In this document: positions 791 to 54,825 of the stretch, in pieces | Layout of the letters: each line of letters starts with the position of its first letter | Numbering within the stretch: position 1 is the stretch's first letter | Assembly (NCBI GenBank): GCA_964016885.1 | Contig: OZ024748.1 | Location: forward strand, 42,222,001-42,286,000 | Source: Eledone cirrhosa | Taxonomy: Eukaryota | Length of the DNA: 64,000 nt | Reading direction: 5' to 3' | Translations under genes and position numbers: made by a program | Notes under the pieces: generated by a model | Seen by the model: only the letters and a program-made list of their open reading frames with translations | Told to the model about the DNA's origin: nothing | Database searches by the model: none

Positions 791-1035
791 AATGGGGTTG
801 ACAAAACAGGCATATATATATAGGTTGGGTTGGGTTGGTATTTGTCTTATGTTATGTCCTAATATAATATATTATTTACGATAAAATAAAGTACCAGTAA
901 TGTACTGGGTAATTGCTGGCCTTGTGCCAAAAGTAGAAACAATTATTTATTTTATATTATATTGTTTATATTAGAAACAGGCTGTTTTAAGGAAAATGAA
1001 ATTATCTGAATGTGTCGTTTGTTTGGATTATTTAA

Positions 1036-1450
1036 ATATTATCCTTCTCTCTATTTCAGAGTCAACTCCCCATCATCATCACAGCTCTGGTGACAATATT
1101 GACCTCTCTATTTCAGAGTCAACTCCCCATCATCATCACAGCTCTGGTGACAATATTATCCTCTCTATTTCAGTCAACTCCCCATCATCATCACAGCTCT
1201 GGTGACAATATTATCCTCTCTATTTCAGTCAACTCCCCATCATCATCACAGCTCTGGTGACAATATTGACCTCTCTATTTCAGAGTCAACTCCCCATCAT
1301 CATCACAGCTCTGGTGACAATATTATCTTCTCTATTTCAGAGTCAACTCCCCATCATCATCACAGCTCTGGTGACAATATTATCCTCTCTATTTCAGAGT
1401 CAACTCCCCATCATCTGCATGGCTCTGTTCACTTTGGTGACAATATCCAG
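1036..1450 (+). repeat. 55-57 bp tandem repeat containing the ECD splice acceptor and exon start
   Basis: ctctctatttcag recurs ending at 1059, 1116, 1173, 1228, 1283, 1340 and 1397. Confidence 0.95.
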
Positions 1451-1515
1451 GATGAATGGTTTGTCGTTTACCTATTGTATCAGCTGACACAACATTTCTC
1501 GGGTCTAACCGCCAA
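1398..1515 (+). CDS. ECD: Ecdysoneless homologue, first exon in window
   Basis: ttttcag-type acceptor and AA|gtaagt donor; (E)STPHHLHGSVHFGDNIQDEWFVVYLLYQLTQHFSGLTAK matches the ECD FGDNIEDEWF motif. Confidence 0.9.
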
Positions 1516-8374: not shown

Positions 8375-8423
<49 letters not shown>

Positions 8424-8425
<2 letters not shown>

Positions 8426-9506
8426 CTAACTAAGAATATAGATTTTATATGTGGCCAGTGCTCTGGTGCAATAAGTAGCAGCAAATGCCCATACAATACT
8501 AGCTCATTCCATTGCCCAGATGGTTCTATAGAAATAGTGGACACCTTCCGTTACCTGTGTGACAAAATCAGCTGTGGTGGAGGGTGCTCTGAAAGTACAG
8601 TAGCTAGAGTCCGAACGGGATGGAAAAAGTTCAGAGAGCTTATACCACTATTGGCCGCTAAAGGTTTCTCTCTAAAAATGAAAGGCCGACTGTATGATGC
8701 CTGCATACGAACAGCAATGTTACATGGCAGTGAGACTTGGGCATTGTGTGCAGAGGATACGCAGACTGGAGAGGAACGAAGCTTGCATGCTCCATTGGAT
8801 GTGTAATAGTAATATATGTGAACGGCAAAGCATAAATGAACTAAGTGAGAAATTAGGAATAAGAGGGATCAGATGCTGTTTACTCGAGAGAAGACTACGT
8901 TGGTATGGTCACGTGATACGCATGAAAGACGACAGCTGTATAAAAAAGTGCAGGGCGATCAAAATAGACGGTAGCCACGGATTAGGCAGACCCAGAAAAA
9001 CCTGGGATGACTTGATAAAATCCAACCTCACACACTTACACCTCTCCAAGACAATGTCACTGGGCCGAGATCTTTGGCGATACGTAGTAATACAGAAGAC
9101 CCGTCTTGCCTAAGTACAAAGCGAAACCTACTGTCAGTAGGCACCTCTTAACCAAAATAACCCCCCCCCCCCATCCCACTACCCTTACCCCCCACCGCCA
9201 TCTACACAACCCCTTTCGATTGTAAAGCTATGTTGGTACCACAATGTCCAGTCCTAAATAAACGAGGTTGTGTAGCTGTCGCGACAAAAAAAAAAACACA
9301 GTCCACGCTGTAATGTGGCCATGTAGGTAACACGGTAAAAACCTCCCAGTCCACACTGTAAACGTGGTTGGTGTTAGGAAGGGCATCCAGCCATAGAAAA
9401 CCTGCCAGACAGTACTGACCAAGACAACCAATCTTGCCTCAAGTGGGACAATTCCCGTCCAGACCCTTGCTAGTGTGGAAGATGGACGTTAAGCGATGAT
9501 GATGAT
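8424..9506 (+). mobile_element. 5'-truncated, frameshifted RTE-clade LINE
   Basis: FRYL.DKIS, AMLHGSETW, RRLRWYGHVIRM, GRPRKTW motifs; (ATG)n tail. Confidence 0.9.
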
Positions 9507-10096
9507 ATATATTATAAAATGACAGGAGGCTGGACTGGTGTAATTCCTTAAAGATTTATTATACTATAAACATTTCAATGACGGGGTTCAGCATGAATCT
9601 GGTGAGATCATCAGGTATTACGGAATTTATCGAATAAAGAAATATAATAATAGACACAATCCAAGGGGCTCTAAAGTAGATAGAAATGTTTAAGACCTGA
9701 AGGCGGCCAAAATTAGCAGTTGCTTGGTAGATAGGTAGATAGATATCTATATATGTGTGTATAGCAACATAAAATGAGCCAGATATATTCTGTTATGACA
9801 TTGTATAGGCTGTGTTAATAGCTTTTCTCAGATGATTCTTTACAAGATTGGAAGAAGACTTGAGAGTTGTGAATGAGAATGCTGGTAACCATCTTGAGTG
9901 TTGCCAGAGTGTCTTATGTTATCTATGGAGGCGGGATGGTGTGTTATTACAATAACATGTATCACCCCCCCATCCTCCCACCTCAACAAATATTTTATTT
10001 CATTGTTGATGTTGTTGTTGGTCTTGTTGGTGGTGGTGGTGATGTTCGTTTGTTGTTGTTAGTAATGTTGATGGTGTTGATGCTGTTGATTGTGTT

Positions 10097-13000
10097 GGTG
10101 TAAGACCTAGAGAGTTGTTGTAAGACCTAGAGTTGTTGTTGTAAGACCTAGAGTTGTTGTTGTAAGACCTAGAGTTGTTGTTGTAAGACCTAGAGTTGTT
10201 GTTGTAAGACCTAGAGTTGTTGTTGTAAGACCTAGAGTTGTTGGTGTAAGACCTAGAGTTGTTGTTGTAAGACCTAGAGTTGTTGTTGTAAGACCTAGAG
10301 TTGTTGTTGTAAGACCTAGAGTTGTTGTTGTAAGACCTAGAGTTGTTGTTGTAAGACCTAGAGTTGTTGTTGTAAGACCTAGAGTTATTGTTGTAAGACC
10401 TAGAGTTATTGTTGTAAGACCTAGAGTTATTGTTGTAAGACCTAGAGTTATTGTTGTAAGACCTAGAGTTATTGTTGTAAGATCTAGAGTTGTTGTTGTA
10501 AGACCTAGTTATTGTTGTAAGACCTAGAGTTGTTGTTGTAAGACCTAGTTATTGTTGTAAGACCTAGAGTTATTGTTGTAAGACCTAGTTATTGTTGTAA
10601 GACCTAGAGTTGTTGTTGTAAGACCTAGAGTTGTTGTTGTAAGACCTAGAGTTGTTGTTGTAAGACCTAGAGTTGTTGTTGTAAGACCTAGAGTTGTTGT
10701 TGTAAGACCTAGAGTTGTTGTTGTAAGACCTAGAGTTGTTGTTGTAAGACCTAGAGTTGTTGTTGTAAGACCTAGAGTTGTTGTTGTAAGACCTAGAGTT
10801 GTTGTTGTAAGACCTAGAGTTGTTGTTGTAAGACCTAGAGTTGGTGTTGTAAGACCTAGAGTTGGTGTTGTAAGACCTAGAGTTGGTGTTGTAAGACCTA
10901 GAGTTGTTGTTGTAAGACCTAGAGTTGGTGTTGTAAGACCTAGAGTTGGTGTTGTAAGACCTAGAGTTGGTGTTGTAAGACCTAGAGTTGGTGTTGTAAT
11001 ACCTAGAGTTGTTGTTGTAAGACCTAGAGTTGTTGTTGTAAGACCTAGAGTTGTTGTTGTAAGACCTAGAGTTGTTGTTGTAAGACCTAGAGTTGTTGTT
11101 GTAAGACCTAGAGTTGTTGTTGTAAGACCTAGAGTTGTTGTTGTAAGACCTAGAGTTGTTGTTGTAAGACCTAGAGAGTTGTTGTAAGACCTAGAGAGTT
11201 GTTGTAAGACCTAGAGAGTTGTAAGACCTAGAGAGTTGTAAGACCTAGAGAGTTGTTGTAAGACCTAGAGTTGTTGTAAGACCTAGAGTTGTTGTAAGAC
11301 CTAGAGTTGTTGTAAGACCTAGAGTTGTTGTAAGACCTAGAGTTGTTGTAAGACCTAGAGTTGTTGTAAGACCTAGAGTTGTTGTAAGACCTAGAGTTGT
11401 TGTAAGACCTAGAGTTGTTGTAAGACCTAGAGTTGTTGTAAGACCTAGAGAGTTGTTGTAAGACCTAGAGAGTTGTTGTAAGACCTAGAGAGTTGTTGTA
11501 AGACCTAGAGAGTTGTTGTAAGACCTAGAGAGTTGTTGTAAGACCTAGAGAGTTGTTGTAAGACCTAGAGAGTTGTTGTAAGACCTAGAGAGTTGTTGTA
11601 AGACCTAGAGAGTTGTTGTAAGACCTAGAGTTGTTGTAAGACCTAGAGTTGTTGTAAGACCTAGAGTTGTTGTAAGACCTAGAGTTGTTGTAAGACCTAG
11701 AGTTGTTGTAAGACCTAGAGTTGTTGTAAGACCTAGAGTTGTTGTAAGACCTAGAGTTGTTGTAAGACCTAGAGTTGTTGTAAGACCTAGAGAGTTGTTG
11801 TAAGACCTAGAGAGTTGTTGTAAGACCTAGAGTTGTTGTAAGACCTAGAGTTGTTGTAAGACCTAGAGTTGTTGTAAGACCTAGAGTTGTTGTAAGACCT
11901 AGAGTTGTTGTAAGACCTAGAGAGTTGTTGTAAGACCTAGAGAGTTGTTGTAAGACCTAGAGAGTTGTTGTAAGACCTAGAGAGTTGTTGTAAGACCTAG
12001 AGAGTTGTTGTAAGACCTAGAGAGTTGTTGTAAGACCTAGAGAGTTGTTGTAAGACCTAGAGAGTTGTTGTAAGACCTAGAGAGTTGTTGTAAGACCTAG
12101 AGAGTTGTTGTAAGACCTAGAGAGTTGTTGTAAGACCTAGAGAGTTGTTGTAAGACCTAGAGAGTTGTTGTAAGACCTAGAGAGTTGTTGTAAGACCTAG
12201 AGAGTTGTTGTAAGACCTAGAGAGTTGTTGTAAGACCTAGAGAGTTGTTGTAAGACCTAGAGAGTTGTTGTAAGACCTAGAGAGTTGTTGTAAGACCTAG
12301 AGAGTTGTTGTAAGACCTAGAGAGTTGTTGTAAGACCTAGAGAGTTGTTGTAAGACCTAGAGAGTTGTTGTAAGACCTAGAGAGTTGTTGTAAGACCTAG
12401 AGAGTTGTTGTAAGACCTAGAGAGTTGTTGTAAGACCTAGAGTTGTTGTAAGACCTAGAGTTGTTGTAAGACCTAGAGTTGTTGTAAGACCTAGAGTTGT
12501 TGTAAGACCTAGAGAGTTGTTGTAAGACCTAGAGAGTTGTTGTAAGACCTAGAGTTGTTGTAAGACCTAGAGTTGTTGTAAGACCTAGAGTTGTTGTAAG
12601 ACCTAGAGTTGTTGTAAGACCTAGAGTTGTTGTAAGACCTAGAGTTGTTGTAAGACCTAGAGTTGTTGTAAGACCTAGAGTTGTTGTAAGACCTAGAGTT
12701 GTTGTAAGACCTAGAGTTGTTGTAAGACCTAGAGAGTTGTTGTAAGACCTAGTGTTGTTGTAAGACCTAGTGTTGTTGTAAGACCTAGTGTTGTTGTAAG
12801 ACCTAGAGTTGTTGTAAGACCTAGAGTTGTTGTAAGACCTAGAGTTGTTGTAAGACCTAGAGTTGTTGTAAGACCTAGAGTTGTTGTAAGACCTAGAGTT
12901 GTTGTAAGACCTAGAGTTGTTGTAAGACCTAGAGTTGTTGTAAGACCTAGAGTTGTTGTAAGACCTAGAGTTGTTGTAAGACCTAGAGTTGTTGTAAGAC

Positions 13001-16000
13001 CTAGAGTTGTTGTAAGACCTAGAGTTGTTGTAAGACCTAGAGTTGTTGTAAGACCTAGAGTTGTTGTAAGACCTAGAGTTGTTGTAAGACCTAGAGTTGT
13101 TGTAAGACCTAGAGTTGTTGTAAGACCTAGAGTTGTTGTAAGACCTAGAGTTGTTGTAAGACCTAGAGTTGTTGTAAGACCTAGAGTTGTTGTAAGACCT
13201 AGAGTTGTTGTAAGACCTAGAGTTGTTGTAAGACCTAGAGTTGTTGTAAGACCTAGAGAGTTGTTGTAAGACCTAGAGTTGTTGTAAGACCTAGAGTTGT
13301 TGTAAGACCTAGAGTTGTTGTAAGACCTAGAGTTGTTGTAAGACCTAGAGTTGTTGTAAGACCTAGAGTTGTTGTAAGACCTAGAGTTGTTGTAAGACCT
13401 AGAGAGTTGTTGTAAGACCTAGAGAGTTGTTGTAAGACCTAGAGAGTTGTTGTAAGACCTAGAGTTGTTGTAAGACCTAGAGAGTTGTTGTAAGACCTAG
13501 AGAGTTGTTGTAAGACCTAGAGAGTTGTTGTAAGACCTAGAGAGTTGTTGTAAGACCTAGAGAGTTGTTGTAAGACCTAGAGTTGTTGTAAGACCTAGAG
13601 AGTTGTTGTAAGACCTAGAGAGTTGTTGTAAGACCTAGAGAGTTGTTGTAAGACCTAGAGAGGTGTTGTAAGACCTAGAGAGGTGTTGTAAGACCTAGAG
13701 AGGTGTTGTAAGACCTAGAGAGGTGTTGTAAGACCTAGAGAGGTGTTGTAAGACCTAGAGAGGTGTTGTAAGACCTAGAGAGTTGTTGTAAGACCTAGAG
13801 AGTTGTTGTAAGACCTAGAGAGTTGTTGTAAGACCTAGAGAGTTGTTGTAAGACCTAGAGAGTTGTTGTAAGACCTAGAGAGTTGTTGTAAGACCTAGAG
13901 AGGTGTTGTAAGACCTAGAGAGGTGTTGTAAGACCTAGAGAGGTGTTGTAAGACCTAGAGAGGTGTTGTAAGACATAGAGAGGTGTTGTAAGACCTAGAG
14001 TTGTTGTAAGACCTAGAGTTGTTGTAAGACCTAGAGAGTTGTTGTAAGACCTAGAGTTGTTGTAAGACCTAGAGTTGTTGTAAGACCTAGAGAGTTGTTG
14101 TAAGACCTAGAGTTGTTGTAAGACCTAGAGTTGTTGTAAGACCTAGAGTTGTTGTAAGACCTAGAGTTGTTGTAAGACCTAGAGTTGTTGTAAGACCTAG
14201 AGAGTTGTTGTAAGACCTAGAGAGTTGTTGTAAGACCTAGAGAGTTGTTGTAAGACCTAGAGAGTTGTTGTAAGACCTAGAGAGTTGTTGTAAGACCTAG
14301 AGAGTTGTTGTAAGACCTAGAGTTGTTGTAAGACCTAGAGTTGTTGTAAGACCTAGAGTTGTTGTAAGACCTAGAGTTGTTGTAAGACCTAGAGTTGTTG
14401 TAAGACCTAGAGTTGTTGTAAGACCTAGAGTTGTTGTAAGACCTAGAGTTGTTGTAAGACCTAGAGTTGTTGTAAGACCTAGAGTTGTTGTAAGACCTAG
14501 AGTTGTTGTAAGACCTAGAGTTGTTGTAAGACCTAGAGTTGTTGTAAGACCTAGAGTTGTTGTAAGACCTAGAGTTGTTGTAAGACCTAGAGAGTTGTTG
14601 TAAGACCTAGAGTTGTTGTAAGACCTAGAGAGTTGTTGTAAGACCTAGAGTTGTTGTAAGACCTAGAGAGTTGTTGTAAGACCTAGAGTTGTTGTAAGAC
14701 CTAGAGTTGTTGTAAGACCTAGAGTTGTTGTAAGACCTAGAGTTGTTGTAAGACCTAGAGTTGTTGTAAGACCTAGAGTTGTTGTAAGACCTAGAGTTGT
14801 TGTAAGACCTAGAGTTGTTGTAAGACCTAGAGTTGTTGTAAGACCTAGAGTTGTTGTAAGACCTAGAGTTGTTGTAAGACCTAGAGTTGTTGTAAGACCT
14901 AGAGTTGTTGTAAGACCTAGAGTTGTTGTAAGACCTAGAGTTGTTGTAAGACCTAGAGAGTTGTTGTAAGACCTAGAGAGTTGTTGTAAGACCTAGAGAG
15001 TTGTTGTAAGACCTAGAGAGTTGTTGTAAGACCTAGAGAGTTGTTGTAAGACCTAGAGTTGTTGTAAGACCTAGAGAGTTGTTGTAAGACCTAGAGAGTT
15101 GTAAGACCTAGAGTTGTTGTAAGACCTAGAGTTGTTGTAAGACCTAGAGTTGTTGTAAGACCTAGAGTTGTTGTAAGACCTAGAGTTGTTGTAAGACCTA
15201 GAGAGTTGTTGTAAGACCTAGAGAGTTGTTGTAAGACCTAGAGAGTTGTTGTAAGACCTAGAGAGTTGTTGTAAGACCTAGAGAGTTGTTGTAAGACCTA
15301 GAGTTGTTGTAAGACCTAGAGTTGTCGTAAGACCTAGAGAGTTGTTGTAAGACCTAGAGAGTTGTTGTAAGACCTAGAGAGTTGTAAGACCTAGAGTTGT
15401 TGTAAGACCTAGAGTTGTTGTAAGACCTAGAGTTGTTGTAAGACCTAGAGTTGTTGTAAGACCTAGAGAGTTGTTGTAAGACCTAGAGAGTTGTTGTAAG
15501 ACCTAGAGAGTTGTTGTAAGACCTAGAGAGTTGTTGTAAGACCTAGAGAGTTGTTGTAAGACCTAGAGTTGTTGTAAGACCTAGAGAGTTGTTGTAAGAC
15601 CTAGAGAGTTGTTGTAAGACCTAGAGTTGTTGTAAGACCTAGAGTTGTTGTAAGACCTAGAGAGTTGTTGTAAGACCTAGAGAGTTGTTGTAAGACCTAG
15701 AGAGTTGTTGTAAGACCTAGAGAGTTGTTGTAAGACCTAGAGTTGTTGTAAGACCTAGAGTTGTTGTAAGACCTAGAGTTGTTGTAAGACCTAGAGAGTT
15801 GTTGTAAGACCTAGAGAGTTGTTGTAAGACCTAGAGAGGTGTTGTAAGACCTAGAGAGGTGTTGTAAGACCTAGAGTTGTTGTAAGACCTAGAGTTGTTG
15901 TAAGACCTAGAGTTGTTGTAAGACCTAGAGTTGTTGTAAGACCTAGAGAGTTGTTGTAAGACCTAGAGAGTTGTTGTAAGACCTAGAGAGTTGTTGTAAG

Positions 16001-16052
16001 ACCTAGAGAGTTGTTGTAAGACCTAGAGTTGTTGTAAGACCTAGAGTTGTTG
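10097..16052. repeat. 6 kb satellite of 18/20/21 bp units gtaagacctag(ag)agttgtt(gtt)
   Basis: About 300 highly homogeneous copies inside an ECD intron. Confidence 0.98.
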
Positions 16053-19312: not shown

Positions 19313-19400
19313 AGTTAGTGACAATGATGAAGAGTTTCTTCTCATTGAGGCAGCCGATGTCCTTCCTGAATGGCTTAATCCTACCACTTCTGAGAACAGA
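19313..19400 (+). CDS. ECD: ECD exon
   Basis: ttttccag|A ... AGA|gtaaga; VSDNDEEFLLIEAADVLPEWLNPTTSENR matches the DNDGEFLLIEAA motif; phase fits the previous exon across a 17.8 kb intron. Confidence 0.93.
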
Positions 19401-20267: not shown

Positions 20268-20446
20268 ATATTGATTAAAGATGGTGAACTACATATAATA
20301 CCAATGCCAACAACCTCCAAAGATTTAGATTGGTTACCATTGTTTACACCAACTCTTAAAGAAGCAATTCAAGCCATACATCAGCATTCCAGTGAAACTA
20401 TTGCATCACCAGGAATACAGAAGGTCATAAAACAGCGACTAGAGTG
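20268..20446 (+). CDS. ECD: ECD exon
   Basis: ttttcag|ATA ... TG|gtaagt; ILIKDGELHIIPMP...IQKVIKQRLE. Confidence 0.9.
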
Positions 20447-20870
20447 GTAAGTTATTTTAACAGTGACTAGAATAGTTATTTTTAACAGTTTAACAGTGAT
20501 TAGAATAGTTATTTTTAACATCGACTAGAACAGTTATTTTTAACAGTTTAACAGTGATTAGAATAGTTATTTTTAACATCGACTAGAACAGTTATTTTTA
20601 ACAGTTTAACAGTGATTAGAATAGTTATTTTTAATAGTTTAACAGTGGCTGTAATAGTTATTTTTAATAGTTTAGCTGTTTAACAATGACTAGAATATTT
20701 ATTTTTAACAGTTTAACAAACTATAATAGTTATTTTTAACATTTTACAACAACTAGAATGGTTATTTTTAATAGTTTAGCAGTGACTATAATAGTTATTC
20801 TTAACAGTGACTAGAGTAGTTATTTTTAATAGTTTAACAGTGACTATAATAGTTATTTTTAATAGTTTAA
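20430..20870 (+). repeat. Degenerate tandem repeat beginning in the exon end/donor
   Basis: aacagcgactagagtggtaagttatttt followed by copies of aacagtgactagaatagttattttt. Confidence 0.85.
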
Positions 20871-21023: not shown

Positions 21024-21165
21024 TTACCCAGAGAAAATTACAAAAGACTTTCACTCCGCCTATTGTTATATTCCTGCTGGTTTAGCTGCAGCTTTAACAC
21101 AACGTCCGTCTCTTATAGCTGCTGGTGTTAATGCCTTTTATTACAGAACTCCTGAGGATTTGAAG
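21024..21165 (+). CDS. ECD: ECD exon
   Basis: tttgcag|T ... AAG|gtcagt; YPEKITKDFHSAYCYIPAGLAAALTQRPSLIAAGVNAFYYRTPEDLK. Confidence 0.92.
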
Positions 21166-21384
21166 GTCAGTCTAACCCTTTTTGTTACTGTATTACTAGT
21201 TAAGGGCCAGTTTAACCCCTTTTGTTACTGTATTATCAGTGAAGGGAGAGTCTAACTCGTTTTGTTACTGTATTACTAGTGTCTTGGGATATTTAGGTTT
21301 TTAGCATAAGATCTGGGAGATTATCAGAATACTGGGCTAATCTGTTCAGTTACTTATTGATGTTTTTTCGGGGTTATTTTTCAG

Positions 21385-21435
21385 GCTTGTCGCTCCTTCC
21401 GTTATTTTCGTCCAGGAACAAGAGTGATGACTCTG
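21385..21435 (+). CDS. ECD: ECD exon
   Basis: ttttcag|GCT ... CTG|gtaagt; ACRSFRYFRPGTRVMTL. Confidence 0.88.
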
Positions 21436-21615: not shown

Positions 21616-21995
<380 letters not shown>

Positions 21996-22079: not shown

Positions 22080-22217
22080 GCTCATGGTTTTGAAATCCTT
22101 TGTTCCAAGTGTAGAAATCCTAACCTTCAAAATGGAGAAAATAATGCCAACAAGAACATACCTGATGTTAGATTGGAGCGGTTTATATCAACGCTCACTG
22201 ATAAAGGATACTTTAAG
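22080..22217 (+). CDS. ECD: ECD exon
   Basis: ttctag|GCT ... AAG|gtgagt; AHGFEILCSK...FISTLTDKGYFK. Confidence 0.92.
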
Positions 22218-22785: not shown

Positions 22786-22871
22786 GGAGAACTTGAAGGG
22801 TCACTGCTCTACAATGAGAATTTGGAGAAAGCAAAACAATATTTCAAAGACAATCTTGATCACACTCCCTG
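22786..22871 (+). CDS. ECD: ECD exon
   Basis: ttttcag|GGA ... TG|gtaatt; GELEGSLLYNENLEKAKQYFKDNLDHTP. Confidence 0.9.
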
Positions 22872-22889: not shown

Positions 22890-23830
22890 TACCATTTACA
22901 TTACTCTATATATACTATTGTATTCTCATGGTAAAGGCTTTACCTCGCATAATATCTCACATAACATTCACATTACTCTATATATACTATTGTATTTTCA
23001 CAGTAAAGGCTTTACCTCACATAATATCTCACATAATATTTACATTACTCTATATTTACTATTGTATTTTCACAGTAAAGGCTTTACCTCACATAACATT
23101 TACATTACTCTATATATACTATTGTATTTTTACAGTAAAGGCTTTACCTCACATAATATCTCACATAACATTCACATTACTCTATATATACTATTGTATT
23201 TTCACAGTAAAGGCTTTACCTCACATAATATCTCGCATAACATTTACATTACTCTATATTTACTATTCTATTTTCACAGTAAAGGCTTTACCTCACATAT
23301 CTCACATAATATTTACATTACTCTATATATACTATTGTATTTTCATAGTAAAGGCTTTACCTCACATAATATTCACATAACATTTACATTACTCTATATA
23401 TACTATTGTATTTTCACAGTAAAGGCTTTACCTCACATAATATCTCGCATAACATTTACATTACTCTATATATACTATTGTATTTTCACAGTAAAGGCTT
23501 TACCTCAAATAATATCTCACATAACATTTACATTACTCTATATATACTATTGTATTTTCACAGTAAAGGCTTTACCTCACATAATATCTCACATAACATT
23601 TACATTACTCTATATATACTATTGTATTTTCACAGTAAAGGCTTTACCTCAAATAATATCTCACATAACATTTACATTACTCTATATATACTATTGTATT
23701 TTCACAGTAAAGGCTTTACCTCACATAATATCGCACATATCGGAACTGAGATTTTGATATTTACTTTGAGAACAATATCTTAACATCAGTATGAGTGGCC
23801 GGTTACAGCTGGTTTGAACAGAAAGAGGTG
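22890..23830 (+). repeat. ~70 bp tandem repeat amplified inside a MITE
   Basis: The unit tttacattactctatatatactattgtattttcacagtaaaggctttacctcacataa is the body of the element at 43961-44167 and 63951-64000. Confidence 0.9.
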
Positions 23831-23836
23831 CTATTA

Positions 23837-24112
23837 TGCTGTTATTATGTCTTATACAGTACCACATGGTGTTATGTCTTACATGTTATGTCTTATACAG
23901 TACCACATGGTGTTGTGTTACATGTTATGTCTTATACAGTACACATGGTGTTATGTCTTACATGTTATGTCTTATACAGTACCACATGGTGTTATGTGTT
24001 ACATGTTATGTCCTATACAGTACCACATGGTGTTATGTGTTACATGTTATGTCTTATACAGTACCACATGGTGTTATGTGTTACAACATGTTATGTCTTA
24101 TACAGTGACACA
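23837..24112 (+). repeat. ~40 bp tandem repeat containing the ECD splice acceptor
   Basis: gttatgtcttatacag recurs about 7 times; the last copy is the true acceptor. Confidence 0.92.
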
Positions 24113-24209
24113 GAACAGTTGGGGCAAACAATGCTAGATTTAATTCACCAGACTCCTTACAGTATTGAGGAACTGCGGCTCCAAGAAGCGATACTCTCAC
24201 CAGAAGATG
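24106..24209 (+). CDS. ECD: ECD exon
   Basis: tatacag|T ... G|gtaaaa; DTEQLGQTMLDLIHQTPYSIEELRLQEAILSPED; phases fit both neighbours. Confidence 0.85.
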
Positions 24210-24665
24210 GTAAAAGAATTCTTTTATATTTGACATTTTAAAAACTTCATTGATCCTCTTTATTGTTGTAATCCTTTATGGGGACATTGCAATTAAACCC
24301 TTTTGTGATATTTCCAATAAAATACATTCTATCTCAATTAATGAATAATTTTGGGAGATTTATTAAAATTATTATTTCATTACTAAGATAACTTAACATG
24401 TGGTTCTTATATAAAATTATGTTGGAATATTTTAATATAAATAGTAACTCTGTAAAATGGGTGGGTTTTTTTTCATAAAACCAGGGCAGAGCTAGTGTGA
24501 AAAGGGTCAAATAAGAACACTTTAAAATGGGTGTTTTTTGTTTCGCAGAACCAGAGACATTTTTGGCTGGGTTGGTATCTAAAGAGTTAATGTTATTAAT
24601 ATCTTCATAAATAATTGACATATTCCACATTTGTGCATTTATAACATGTAATTTTGTATCAGTAA

Positions 24666-26577
24666 GTTAGTACACAAAAGTTGACACTTTAATATAAGGT
24701 CTATCTTTTATAGATGACTCTTAGCTGTTAGTCCACAAGAAGTTGACACTTTAATATAAGGTCTATCTTTTATAGATGACTCTTGGCTGTGTTAGTCCAC
24801 AAGAAGTTGACAGTTTAATATAAGGTCTATCTTTTATAGATTACTCTTGGCTGTGTTAGTCCACAAGAAGTTGACAGTTTAATATAAGGTCTATCTTTTA
24901 TAGATGACTCTTAGCTGTGTTAATCCACAAGAAGTTGACACTTTAATATAAGGTCTATCTTTTATAGTTGACTCTTAGCTGTGTTAGTCCACAAGGAGTT
25001 GACATTTTAATATAAGGTCTATCTTTTATAGATGACTCTTGGCTGTGTTAGTCCACAAGGAGTTGACACTTTAGTATAAGGTCTCTTTTATAGTTGACAC
25101 TTTAATATAAGGTCTAGCTTTTATAGATGACTCTTAGCTGTGTTAGTCCACAAGAAGTTGACACTTTAATATAAGGTCTATCTTTTATAGATGACTCTTA
25201 GCTGTGTTAGTCCACAAGAAGTTGACACTTTAATATAAGGTCTATCTTTTATAGTTGACTCTTAGCTGTGTTAGTCCACAAGGAGTTGACACTTTAGTAT
25301 AAGGTCTATCTTTTATAGATGACTCTTGGCTGTGTTAGTCCACAAGAAGTTGACAGTTTAATATAAGGTCTATCTTTTATAGATTACTGTTGGCTGTGTT
25401 AGTCCACAAGGAGTTGACACTTTAGTATAAGGTCTCTTTTATAGTTGACACTTTAATATAAGGTCTAGCTTTTATAGATGACTCTTAGCTTTGTTAGTCC
25501 ACAAGAAGTTGACACTTTAATATAAGGTCTATCTTTTATAGATGACACTTTAATATAAGGTCTATCTTTTATAGTTGACTCTTAGCTGTGTTAGTCCACA
25601 AGGAGTTGACACTTTAATATAAGGTCTATCTTTTATAGTTGACTCTTAGCTGTGTTAGTCCACAAGGAGTTGACACTTTAGTATAAGGTCTATCTTTTAT
25701 AGTTGACTCTTAGCTGTGTTAGTCCACAAGGAGTTGACATTTTAGTATAAGGTCTATCTTTTATAGATGACTCTTAGCTGTGTTAGTCCACAAGGAGTTG
25801 ACACTTTAGTATAAGGTCTCTTTTATAGTTGACACTTTAATATAAGGTCTAGCTTTTATAGATGACTCTTAGCTTTGTTAGTCCACAAGAAGTTGACACT
25901 TTAATATAAGGTCTATCTTTTATAGATGACACTTTAATATAAGGTCTATCTTTTATAGTTGACTCTTAGCTGTGTTAGTCCACAAGGAGTTGACACTTTA
26001 ATATAAGGTCTATCTTTTATAGTTGACTCTTAGCTGTGTTAGTCCACAAGGAGTTGACACTTTAGTATAAGGTCTATCTTTTATAGTTGACTCTTAGCTG
26101 TGTTAGTCCACAAGGAGTTGACATTTTAGTATAAGGTCTATCTTTTATAGATGACTCTTGGCTGTGTTAGTCCACAAGGAGTTGACACTTTAGTATAAGG
26201 TCTAGCTTTTATAGATGACTCTTAGCTTTGTTAGTCCACAAGAAGTTGACACTTTAATATAAGGTCTATCTTTTATAGATGACTCTTGGCTGTGTTAGTC
26301 CACAAGAAGTTGACAGTTTAATATAAGGTCTATCTTTTATAGATGACTCTTGGCTGTGTTAGTCCACAAGAAGTTGACAGTTTAATATAAGGTCTATCTT
26401 TTATAGATGACTCTTGGCTGTGTTAGTCCACAAGAAGTTGACAGTTTAATATAAGGTCTATCTTTTATAGATGACTCTTGGCTGTGTTAGTCCACAAGAA
26501 GTTGACAGTTTAATATAAGGTCTATCTTTTATTGTACAGATGACTCTTGGTTGTATGTTAGTCCACAAGAAGTTGAT
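24666..26577 (+). repeat. 64 bp tandem repeat containing the ECD acceptor and exon start, about 30 copies
   Basis: Unit tttaatataaggtctatcttttatag|atgactcttggctgtgttagtccacaagaagttgacag versus exon ATGACTCTTGGTTGTATGTTAGTCCACAAGAAGTTGA. Confidence 0.96.
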
Positions 26578-26708
26578 GCTATGATTTTGAAAGCTGGTGG
26601 TAAAGATCCCTCGAAATGTGAAAAGTCTTTTGATGTAAATCAAGTATCAAACAGTATGAGATCTTTCGTGGAAACAATCTCAGACTATGAAGGAGCAGAA
26701 TTTCCAAA
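26540..26708 (+). CDS. ECD: ECD exon
   Basis: ttgtacag|AT ... AA|gtaagt; DDSWLYVSPQEVDAMIL...MRSFVETISDYEGAEFP. Confidence 0.92.
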
Positions 26709-27540: not shown

Positions 27541-27608
27541 AGAATGTTTGGAAGATGATATCAACTTTGATTCCACTGGATTTATTCACGCCATGAATAA
27601 AACATTTG
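27541..27608 (+). CDS. ECD: ECD exon
   Basis: ttttacag|A ... G|gtaagt; ECLEDDINFDSTGFIHAMNKTF. Confidence 0.88.
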
Positions 27609-28511: not shown

Positions 28512-28693
28512 AATTTGAAGAAAGCTGTTCTGATAGCAGCTCAGAAATGGATGAATATGATTGGAACTCTTCAGATGAAGACACTTCTAGAACCAGCTCC
28601 AATTCCAGAAGTGAAATAAAAGGTTACATTAAAGCAATGGATCAGGAATTATCAAAGACAACATTAGGCAAAAGTTTTGAATATTCAAATAAA
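28512..28693 (+). CDS. ECD: ECD exon (acidic region)
   Basis: ttggtag|AA ... AAA|gtaagt; EFEESCSDSSSEMDEY...YIKAMDQELSKTTLGKSF. Confidence 0.88.
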
Positions 28694-30674: not shown

Positions 30675-31022
30675 AGAAGCAAACCACCACGGCCACCTCC
30701 TCCTCAAAAGTTTTCGCAGACTTCACCAAAGAAAAGCATCGCCCCAGAACGATCTCCACCACCATCAAAGGTAGAAGAAGTCCCTCCAGTACAGTCTGTG
30801 CCTCTTAATGGGTCCAACCAATCACCTGATGACATAGATGATGAAGATGAAGGATTTAGGCCTGTTAATATAGATGTCAATGTTGTGAAGAACCTTCTAG
30901 CTTCCCACAATATTAACCCAGGTCAGCCTGGACCAGCTACTAATATATTGTCTTCAATGGGGGTAGATCTTCACCAAGGCAAAAAGAAAGAGATGTGTAT
31001 GAATCGAGCTGGAAGCAAGTAA
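30675..31022 (+). CDS. ECD: ECD terminal coding exon
   Basis: tttacag|AGA; Pro-rich linker then FRPVNIDVNVVKNLLASHNINPGQPGPATNILSSMG; TAA at 31020-31022 followed by AATAAA. Confidence 0.9.
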   Translation, partial: RSKPPRPPPPQKFSQTSPKKSIAPERSPPPSKVEEVPPVQSVPLNGSNQSPDDIDDEDEGFRPVNIDVNVVKNLLASHNINPGQPGPATNILSSMGVDLHQGKKKEMCMNRAGSK

Positions 31023-39370: not shown

Positions 39371-39657
39371 TTAATCCTTTAGCATTTAAACTGGCTGTAT
39401 CTAGCCAGAATTCTCTCACCTCTTTCTATGCAAACTGGCTGTAACTGTCTGCTCATACTGATGTTAAGGTAGTGTTTTCAAAATAAATAATACTAAAATC
39501 TCAGATTCAATGTTATGTGAGGTAAAACCTTTACTGTGAAAATACAATAGCATATATAGAGTAATGTAAATGTTATGTGAGGTATTTATGTGAGGTAGAG
39601 CCTTTACTGTGAAAATACAATAGCATATATAGAGTAATGTAAATACTAAAGGGTTAA
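39371..39657. mobile_element. piggyBac-like MITE
   Basis: ttaa-tcctttagcattta ... taaatactaaaggg-ttaa. Confidence 0.7.
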
Positions 39658-41167: not shown

Positions 41168-41447
41168 TTAACCCTTTAGCATTTAAACTGGTTGTATCTG
41201 ACCAGAATTCTCTCACCTCTTTCTGTTCAAACCAGCCATAACTAGCTGCTCATATTTATGTTAAGGTATTGTTCTCAAACTATATCATATCAAAATCTTG
41301 TAGCTTTGATATTATGTGAGATAAAGCCTTTAACAAGAAAATACAATAGTATAAATAGAGTATGTAAATGTGTATGTGAGATATTATATGAGGTAAAGCC
41401 TTTAACAAGAAAATACAATAGTATATATAGAATAATGTAAATGTTAA
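41168..41447. mobile_element. piggyBac-like MITE
   Basis: ttaaccctttagcatttaaactgg start; same body as 39371-39657. Confidence 0.65.
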
Positions 41448-42051: not shown

Positions 42052-42184
42052 CTATTTGAAGATGATACCACTTTCTCATACATGCTATTGCTGTCAATTT
42101 TCTCTTTCTTTGATAAATAGCAGTCAGCCATTTCATCCTCCCAGTGAATTAAACGTTTCTCCTCATTAAAGTCAAATTTTTTTC
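42052..42184 (-). CDS. TRPM-family channel exon (rib helix)
   Basis: ttccacag|GA ... AG|gtaggt; RKKFDFNEEKRLIHWEDEMADCYLSKKEKIDSNSMYEKVVSSSNR. Confidence 0.85.
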
Positions 42185-43139: not shown

Positions 43140-43211
43140 GTTGGTAACTAAAGGGTTAAAGACAAAAATAACAACAAAAACAACAACAAAAAAACAAAAA
43201 ATGCTACTTGC

Positions 43212-43402
43212 TGAAGCCAGACTTTCTGTGGTATGGTAGATTAAATTTTTTTTTGAATAGATACTGACAAAGGAGATAGATGTTATTGAAGATAATGAGT
43301 GGAGGTGGCAAAGGAGGTCGTGTGTAATACTCAAAAATGAGGCTATATCTTTGGAAATGCCAGTGAAGATCAGTATTTTCCTGTACATTCTGGAAGGTGT
43401 AA
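43212..43402 (-). CDS. TRPM-family channel exon (TRP box)
   Basis: [37 protein letters not shown]...HRKSGF; the frame-compatible donor is GC (A|gcaagt). Confidence 0.88.
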
Positions 43403-50879: not shown

Positions 50880-51935
50880 CCAGTACTGTGTCTTACCAAA
50901 CTTCCTTTCTCATTTTTTTGTGATGTCATCTTCAGCACTTTGTCCTAAGTTATCTTAGGTCTTCCTCATCCACGAGTTCCAACCCCTAGGAGTACTCTAC
51001 ACTGCTTTATACAATTGTCAAGTGTTCCAGCCCCTAGGAGTACTCTACACTGCTTTATACAATTGTCAAGAGTTCCAGCCCCTAGGAGTACCCTAAACTT
51101 CTTTATACAATTGTCAAGGGTTCCTGCCCCTAGGAATACCCTAAACTTCCTTACACAATTGTCAAGGGTTCCAGCCCCTAGGAGTACCCTAAACTTCCTT
51201 ATACAATTGTCAAGGGGTCCAGCCCCTAGGAGTACCCTACACTTCTTCATACAATTATCAAGTGTTCCAGCCCCTAGGAGTACTCTACACTGCTTTATAC
51301 AATTGTCAAGTGTTCCAGCCCCTAGGAGTACCCTACACTTCTTCATACAATTATCAAGTGTTCCAGCCCCTAGGAGTACTCTACACTGCTTTATACAATT
51401 GTCAAGTGTTCCAGCCCCTAGGAGTACTCTACACTGCTTTATACAATTGTCAAGTGTTCCAGCCCCTAGGAGTACTCTACACTGCTTTATACAATTGTCA
51501 AGTGTTCCAGCCCCTAGGAGTACCCTAAACTTCCTTACACAATTGTCAAGGGTTCCAGCCCCTAGGAGTACCCTAAACTTCCTTACACAATTGTCAAGAG
51601 GTCCAGCCCCTAGGAGTACCCTACACTGCTTTATACAATTGTCAAGAGTTCCAGCCCCTAGGAGTACCCTAAACTTCTTTATACAATTGTCAAGGGTTCC
51701 TGCCCCTAGGAATACCCTAAACTTCCTTACACAATTGTCAAGGGGTCCAGCCCCTAGGAGTACCCTAAACTTTCTTATACAATTGTCAAGGGTTCCAGCC
51801 CCTAGGAGTACCCTACACTGCTTTATACAATTGTCAAGGGGTCCAGCCCCTAGGAGTACCCTAAACTTCCTTATACAATTGTCAAGGGGTCCTGCCCCTA
51901 GGAGTACCCTACACTTCTTTATACAATTGTCAAGT
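50880..51935 (-). repeat. 48 bp tandem repeat, about 20 copies, continuous with an RTE remnant
   Basis: The unit encodes LDNCIKKCRVLLGAGT and runs into G*GRPKIT*DKV. Confidence 0.93.
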
Positions 51936-53427: not shown

Positions 53428-54825
53428 TCATCATCATCATCATCATCATCAACGTTTAACGTCCGTGTTCCACGCTTGCATGGGTTTGGACGGGGGTAGT
53501 CCCACTTGAGGCAAGAGTGATTGTCTTGCTCGCATAGGACTGTCTGGCAGGTTTTCTACAGTTGGATGCCCTTCCTAACACCAACCACATTTACAGTGTG
53601 GGTCTGGGAGGTTTTTACCGTGTTGCCTACACGGCCACATTACAGCGTGGACTGTGTGTTTTTTTGTCGTGACACCTACACGATCTCATTTGTTTCGGCC
53701 TGGATGGCGCGGCACCAACATAACTTTACATAGGACGGGGTGGTGTGGATGGGTGGGGGTGGTGGCGGGACGGGGTGTATTTTGTTAGAGATGCCTACTG
53801 GCAAGGCGGGTCTTCTCTGTTACTGAGTACCGCCAAAGGTCTCGGTCCAGTGACATTGTCTTGGAGAGGTGTAAGTGTGTGAGGTCGGAGTTTATCAGCT
53901 CGTCCCAGGTTTTTCTAGGTCTGCCTATTCCGTGGCTACCGTCTATCTTTATTGCCCTGCACTTTGTTATACAGCTATCGACTTTCATGCGCATCACGTG
54001 TCCATACCAACGTAGCCTTCTCTCGAGTAAACAGCATCTGATCCCTCTTATCTCTAATTTTTTCCTTAGTTCGTTTATGCTTTGCCGTTCACGTATATTA
54101 CTGTTACACATCCAGCGGAGCATGCAAGCTTCGTTCCTCTCTAGTCTGCGTATATCCTCTGCACACAATGCCCAGGTCTCACTGCCATGCAACATTGCTG
54201 TTCGTATGCAGGCATCGTACAACCTGCCTTTCATTTTTAGGGAGAACCCTTTAGCAGCTAATAGTGGTATAAGCTCTCTGAACTTTTTCCAACCAGTTCT
54301 GACTCTAGCTACAGTACTTTCAGAGCACCCTCCCCCACTGCTGATTTTATCGCCCAGGTAACGGAAGCTGTCCACTATTTCTATAGAACCCTCTGCGCAA
54401 TTGAAAGAGCTAGTATTTTGTGGGCACTTGCTGCTACTTATTGCACCAGAACACCGGCCACATGTAAAATCTATGTTCTTAGTTAGCTTACCTGTGATCC
54501 CACTACATCTTTTATGCACCCATACTTTGCATTTAGGACATAAAATGGAGTTTCTACCTACGCCTTTCCTACACACCGAGCACGACCATTTCCCAGAAGG
54601 GACCGCCGCCTTGTTTTCTTTCCTACAAACTAGAACTTTGGTCTTAGCCAGGTTAATTTTAAGTCCTTTTGACTCTAGGCCGTGCTTCCATGTTTGGAAT
54701 TTCTTCTCTAGCTCGACCATTGATTCCGCTATGAGTGTCAGGTCGTCTGCGTATAGGAGTTCCCATGGGCAGCCTGTCTTGAACTCCTCTGTTATAGCCT
54801 GAAGGGCAATAATAAATAGTAGGGG
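53428..54825 (-). mobile_element. 5'-truncated RTE-clade LINE with an open RT C-terminal frame
   Basis: PWELLYADDL, a Cys-rich insert, FRYLG, LRWYGHVMRM, GRPRKTW; (ATG)n tail. Confidence 0.93.

Follow-up and report, generated by a model that had tools for sequence, protein, structure and literature searches.

The ECD gene of the octopod Eledone cirrhosa carries a tandem array of splice acceptors in front of its exon E2. Here, we argue from comparative sequence analysis that this array is probably a neutral product of slippage, a junction minisatellite ("mirage") that supplies decoy acceptors, and that splicing would take place mainly at the last acceptor, at position 1397 of the window (the whole stretch of 64,000 nt that was analysed).

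The ECD gene and the anatomy of its acceptor array

Past 1397, the sequence matches the Pfam family SGT1 (PF07093) with 57.5 bits against a cut-off of 30 (E 1e-15), and the protein search matches in this part are ECD of Octopus sinensis and of Argonauta hians. Judged by these matches the gene is octopod ECD/SGT1 (ecdysoneless), the identity that an earlier sequence-only reading had given it. ECD acts in U5 snRNP assembly (PMC12751037; PMC7897482, PMC3983036) and its loss is described as lethal in flies and mammals (PMC12751037). A tblastn search with octopod ECD proteins places 13 exons between 1398 and 31022, which, with GT-AG ends fixed, form a single open frame of 600 codons free of frameshifts, identical to O. 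sinensis ECD at 534 of 599 aligned residues (89%); the first ~66 codons fall outside the window, on its upstream side. In both octopod orthologues GD is followed directly by ESTPHHL with no insert (GD|ESTP), and therefore the intron before E2 is a phase-1 intron and 1397 is the acceptor that gives the orthologous protein.

1389..1397, + strand: terminal acceptor, which restores the orthologous protein (phase-1 intron)
1398..1515, + strand: E2, the true ECD exon and the first in the window (118 nt), with a strong donor CAA|GTAAGT and then a 17.8-kb intron
19313-19400, 20268-20446, 21024-21165, 21385-21435, + strand: ECD exons E3-E6
21640-21768, 22080-22217, 22786-22871, 24106-24209, + strand: ECD exons E7-E10
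26540-26708, 27541-27608, 28512-28693, 30675-31022, + strand: ECD exons E11-E14

An 18-20-nt satellite of ~6 kb (10094-16046) makes up one third of the intron after E2.

The acceptor motif CTATTTCAG is found seven times on the + strand of the 64-kb window, each time within the array, and is absent both from the - strand and from the + strand outside the array; local composition predicts 0.004 copies per 415 nt. Its copies end at 1059, 1116, 1173, 1228, 1283, 1340 and 1397, confirming the seven acceptors with spacings of 57, 57, 55, 55, 57 and 57 that the sequence-only reading had listed. Run on the window, TRF reports 1047-1415 with a period of 57, 6.5 copies and 96% matches.

1035..1441, + strand: junction minisatellite ("mirage"), with AATAT-cut units starting at 1035, 1095, 1152, 1207, 1262 and 1319
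1035..1059, + strand: native intron end, with the longest pyrimidine tract, a 68-nt AG-free zone and an acceptor AG (1058-1059) that now stands before a pseudo-exon
1152..1261, + strand: two 55-nt units that lack one AG of CAGAG, by which the acceptors 1059-1228 are out of frame
1275..1283, + strand: decoy acceptor, in frame and without a stop, which would add 38 aa
1332..1340, + strand: decoy acceptor, in frame and without a stop, which would add 19 aa
1371..1376, + strand: GTGACA of the last unit; copies of this latent donor follow 1089, 1146, 1201, 1256, 1313 and 1370

Cut at AATAT, the units measure 60, 57, 55, 55, 57 and 57 nt, and each combines 22-25 nt of intron end with exon start; the terminal unit (1376-1441, 66 nt) continues into the true exon. 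The microhomology between intron and exon at which the units had been said to close is real, and its exact extent is the 5 nt AATAT (native intron 1035-1039, exon 1442-1446). Compared with the present-day exon start, all units have in common a 9-nt deletion and four substitutions, and these substitutions lengthen a CAT run that is the source of HHHH. Further variants are common to several units, namely TGACC in two non-adjacent units and the missing AG in two adjacent ones; the first unit has 3 extra nt, and the inner units are 96% alike. Since the deletion, the substitutions and the further variants are shared in this way, a single duplication must have drifted within the intron and been amplified later. 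The same pattern of sharing, between non-adjacent units too, makes it scarcely credible that the junction was falsely expanded in assembly, as does the run of ECD codons without a frameshift, even though the sequence represents a single haplotype and the missing AG sits in a dinucleotide repeat that is prone to read errors.

The acceptor that precedes the true exon is one of the copies; the intron has its native end at 1059, where the AG-free zone spans 68 nt compared with 32 nt at every other array acceptor, 1397 included. A latent donor CTG|GTGACA recurs in every unit 28-30 nt past its acceptor. The GTGACA at 1371..1376 also appears to be the best-placed branch-point-like TnAy for 1397 (A at -24), and we infer that the exon-derived GTGAC, with its A at -24, is the likeliest branch site of all acceptors except 1059.

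How might such an array have come about? In a first step, slippage or microhomology-mediated repair may have acted between the AATAT of the exon and that of the intron end, a breakpoint that can be read directly in the DNA, and would have duplicated ~69 nt across the acceptor. The upstream copy, now intronic, then drifted, as its deletion, substitutions and longer CAT run attest, and was afterwards multiplied, through slippage or unequal exchange, into units that have variants in common, as the terminal copy stayed coding. Finally, E2, which lies between long introns, may be recognised by cross-exon definition from the donor at 1516 and from exon-internal enhancers. Exon definition would favour the nearest acceptor with a complete exon, which is 1397, as the decoys precede just 38 nt of damaged exon. 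In vitro, duplicated splice sites with a truncated exon were reportedly passed over, and the site that had the full exon was used (Reed and Maniatis, in 1986). Several points speak against the neutral reading: 1397 is a weak acceptor and is without the native branch region, the two closest decoys keep the frame and would give exons of an ordinary size, and in human ABCA7 a splice-site VNTR sees some use of its next unit (PMC5954066).

As to its structure, the E2 array is a mirage, a known kind of element in a new, cephalopod lineage. It consists of head-to-tail units of intron end plus exon start, of 55-60 nt (reported range 10-160), in 6 extra copies, with CAG retained as a cryptic acceptor site in 6/6 extra units and with homogenised inner units from which the boundary copies are excluded. 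Mirages have been described in amphioxus Adh3, the globins BflGb6 and BflGb9, troponin C and PGBD5 (PMC3087553, PMC3902484), as minisatellite-like duplications of an intron's 3' end together with the 5' portion of an exon, with units of 10-160 nt that keep AG/GT (PMC3087553), with homogenised inner units, excluded boundaries and regular splicing by RT-PCR (PMC3087553, PMC3902484). The array described for amphioxus BflGb6 has exactly the same layout as that at E2, with 6 and 3 units, and the likeness to the published mirages extends to AG/GT in many units, a divergent boundary copy and the presence of both acceptor and donor forms. The ECD arrays differ in their host, an octopod mollusc, whereas mirages are treated as a cephalochordate feature in PMC3087553 and PMC3902484; they differ also in being five at one gene, and in that two of the E2 decoys keep the frame and give a His-rich reading. 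Searches of an open-access library gave no relevant report of mirages in cephalopods.

Decoy acceptors, reading frames and a possible His-rich loop

Joining each AG between 900 and 1400 to the 13-exon ECD model shows that four of 23 (1397, 1340, 1283 and 1196) are open to the natural stop, and that 19 run into a premature one. In this model 1340 and 1283 would add 19 and 38 aa, as the sequence-only reading had predicted for these two stop-free acceptors, giving exons of an ordinary size (175 and 232 nt), and a weak CACAG at 1196 would add 67 aa. The four acceptors farther upstream (1059, 1116, 1173 and 1228; 4/6 decoys), which had been read as out of frame, indeed lead to premature stops, and the loss of one AG of CAGAG in the two 55-nt units was correctly given as the reason. 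The second AGs of CAGAG at 1061 and 1118 are in frame by length, yet they run into a stop. As two of the six units are 55 nt, frame is not maintained across the array. The two decoys closest to the exon are exactly the two array acceptors in frame, a pattern consistent with selection against nonsense products, should the decoys be used.

The claim that the array adds His-rich units to ECD finds no support in this analysis, in which most E2 decoys yield nonsense and the other junction arrays of the gene are predicted to be likewise mostly or wholly nonsense. The His run itself is a by-product of the CAT repeat within the copied exon start. It seems unlikely that 1340 and 1283 are used substantially to make ECD isoforms with one or two His-rich units of 19 aa in a hairpin loop of the N-terminal domain. 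Such isoforms would be consistent with the open frames of both acceptors and with their near-identity to 1397. A weight matrix scores the seven acceptors, from 1059 to 1397, at 4.4, 2.3, 2.9, 2.9, 2.3, 4.7 and 2.9 bits, which places 1340 slightly above 1397 (4.7 vs 2.9); this matrix was trained on only 10 other ECD acceptors and is crude, as two ordinary intronic AGs, at 974 and 980, score higher than every array site. By these scores 1397 is among the weakest of the 13 ECD acceptors and no better than its decoys (2.3-4.7), in keeping with the earlier remark that the choice of acceptor cannot be read from the acceptor sequences.

The site of insertion likewise lends some plausibility to His-rich isoforms. 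In the AlphaFold2 model of O. sinensis ECD it lies at the surface, in the loop that separates strands 61-63 and 72-78 (mean pLDDT 72.6, local about 89-93), where small length changes are tolerated. A search of solved structures by sequence yielded no ECD entry, and its single match, to a 70-aa STI1 domain, is outside the region. However, an alignment to orthologues, suggested earlier as a check, reveals the insert in none of 44 named ECD orthologues; the loop at this point has 11 residues in 29/44, 10-14 in 42/44 and 14 at most. Three protein searches agree with this. The translated stretch 1283-1516 gave two matches among 2422 candidate longer proteins, both on the true exon only, the same stretch gave none among 390 candidates of 42-137 aa, and the best 120 of 1066 matches to full-length O. 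sinensis ECD include none at the identity expected for Eledone's own ECD. That no protein with the His insert appears in them argues weakly against the isoforms, this species' own ECD being absent from the candidates. Frame is broken in a third of the units, open in-frame decoys arise at E10 without any His content and give the open frame nothing special, and the amphioxus precedent is spliced normally. On the neutral reading, leakage to 1340 or 1283 would be minor and would lengthen the loop in a way that is probably tolerated and serves no selected function, and nonsense-mediated decay would remove the products of leakage to 1059-1228; use of 1340 at trace level is compatible with it.

Could the decoys instead regulate the amount of ECD? 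In this alternative, which we consider quite improbable, use of the decoys 1059-1228 or skipping of E2 sends pre-mRNA to nonsense-mediated decay, and alleles of the array tune the ECD level. It would draw on the native tract and longest AG-free zone that 1059 retains, and on the breaking of the frame by 4/6 decoys and by skipping of E2 (118 mod 3 = 1). It would draw as well on the human ABCA7 VNTR, the length of which is described to alter skipping of the next exon (PMC5954066), and on the role reported for ECD as a U5 snRNP assembly factor (PMC12751037). However, the array is young and lineage-specific. Autoregulatory poison events are usually deeply conserved, and this counts against a dosage role.

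Very improbable, in our view, is the birth of an intron, in which 1059 (or 1116 or 1283) and the latent donor CTG|GTGACA would define a 30-nt micro-exon of 10 additional aa and a new intron that ends at 1397. A model of this kind is drawn for mirages (PMC3087553, Figure 7). Micro-exons of 30 nt from 1059, 1116 and 1283 indeed keep the frame, and the introns that remain would measure 308, 251 and 84 nt, but the latent donor scores 5.3 bits compared with 7.7-13.5 bits for the 12 real ECD donors. Exons of 30 nt with weak sites are seldom included, which counts against this alternative too. RNA folding of 1000-1530 is not taken to be a mechanism (z = -1.77, with 4/100 shuffles as good, as expected for a repeat).

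The exon copy of the junction also bears a change of its own. The residues Cys-Thr of O. sinensis are replaced in E2 by Ser-Val, and the Val stands at a position where Thr (T77 in O. sinensis) is present in 43/43 aligned orthologues, setting Eledone apart from the ECD/SGT1 family at an otherwise invariant residue. Among the 117 columns in which O. sinensis shares its residue with at least 90% of orthologues, Eledone departs at three.

1427..1429, + strand: Thr77->Val, in E2
21148-21150: Asp237->Thr
30915-30917: Gln634->Asn

The Val codon begins at the breakpoint of the 9-nt deletion of the unit, and the bases before it are common to the unit; the other two changes are outside any copied segment. 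Possibly the Ser-Val change reached the exon by sequence exchange from the array, or it is an earlier substitution.

Other minisatellites in the ECD gene

With arrays filtered for a period of at least 15, at least 2.5 copies and no likeness to microsatellites, the window contains 31 minisatellite arrays of every origin. Alignment of splice junctions with their neighbouring introns detects clear duplicates at 5/25 ECD splice sites (scores 29-73; shuffled maxima 22-24) and one further, marginal case (20 vs 19 for shuffled sequence); in the neighbouring ion-channel gene, 0/13 splice sites have junction-derived arrays. Beside E2, the clear cases are as follows.

20440..20870, + strand: donor-derived array after E4, with copies that lack the GTGGT core; 33/33 GTs give stops
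21161..21281, + strand: donor-derived array at E5, 40 nt x 3, in which neither extra copy has GT at the donor position
23845..24105, + strand: array of acceptors before E10 that consists mostly of intron sequence, 41 nt x 6.4
24666..26576, + strand: array of acceptor and exon start before E11, 64-nt unit, 1.9 kb

The two E5 copies probably owe their loss of GT to a single inherited event, which hence was not counted as selection. Among the six decoy CAGs of the E10 array, two are in frame and open and four give nonsense. At E11 all 31 decoy acceptors (TTTTATAG) give stops, and the true acceptor differs (TTGTACAG) and, unlike 1397 at E2, outscores its decoys (8.4 vs 4.6-5.5 bits); this array starts with an older, degenerate copy near 24650-24690. 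Because loss of ECD is lethal and the decoys are mostly or wholly nonsense, the terminal acceptor must win over near-identical decoys at least at E10 and E11, and this favours the neutral reading of the E2 array.

Two other arrays, of 72 nt after E9 and of 48 nt before E12, were rejected as junction-derived, with alignment scores within the shuffled range. The 72-nt array (x 12, 22893-23739) begins 21 nt past the E9 donor and has an acceptor-like TTTTCACAG in each unit; its source is a dispersed element rather than the junction, and the window has related copies near 39500-39640, 41308-41444, 43960 and 63950.

Are minisatellites targeted to splice junctions? Leaving out the E2 array itself, and under a uniform null, 3/14 arrays of the ECD span (strict) or 4/14 (inclusive) are at a junction vs 0.93 expected (P 0.060 and 0.011), and in both genes together 3-4/30 vs 1.04 expected (P 0.083 and 0.019). 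The signal fades in the compact part (P 0.22 and 0.064) and under a within-intron null (P 0.38 and 0.14), and we do not regard targeting as established. A more far-reaching view would see in junction minisatellites a class of mutation that recurs across this octopod genome, and in the ECD array a live, length-variable splice rheostat, in which the order of 57- and 55-nt units apportions the pre-mRNA of a U5 snRNP assembly factor to normal protein, His-loop isoforms or decay, and from which exchange with the exon replaced the invariant Thr; we hold this view to be improbable.

Related systems, significance and the neighbouring sequence

On the donor side, the human ABCA7 intron-18 VNTR contains a splice donor, and a transcript one unit longer is described as made at some level (PMC5954066). 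It resembles the E2 array in being a tandem unit with a real splice dinucleotide, and array length affects splicing there. It differs in its 25-nt GC-rich unit that starts at GT, with no exon part in the description given in that report, and in its out-of-frame products. That introns can be gained when splice-site-like sequence is duplicated in tandem has been proposed before (Rogers 1989; Zhuo 2007; Gao and Lynch 2009; cited in PMC3087553), and the ECD unit, with its AG and latent GT, could likewise define a new intron or micro-exon. In contrast to that model, the ECD duplication spans an existing acceptor, its latent donor is weak and there is no sign of a new intron.

If the array is an ordinary mirage, such structures extend from amphioxus to a cephalopod, and gene predictors may add false His-rich inserts at ECD E2. 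With seven near-identical acceptors at E2 and >30 at E11, a single essential gene offers a natural experiment in which the choice of the spliceosome among duplicated 3' splice sites, and the seeding of introns, can be probed. If the in-frame decoys are used, minisatellite turnover would feed directly into variation of a protein loop in a core splicing factor.

Convergent with ECD, the minus strand of 40850-63151 holds the seven final exons of a gene for an ion channel (Pfam Ion_trans), which we take to be TRPM-like. Its frame closes only with a GC donor CA|GCAAGT (43208-43212, minus strand) or, alternatively, with one base too many in a seven-A run of the next exon (42177-42184, minus strand), which would be an assembly error. 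A 48-nt x 20 array in the long intron of this gene (50976-51934) has open frames of 359 and 342 codons on its two strands and is bracketed on the + strand by AG and GTAAGT; its open frames are probably due to chance in a 16-codon unit. By eye, long frames at 8384-9110 and 53789-54799 resemble remnants of reverse transcriptase (LINE).
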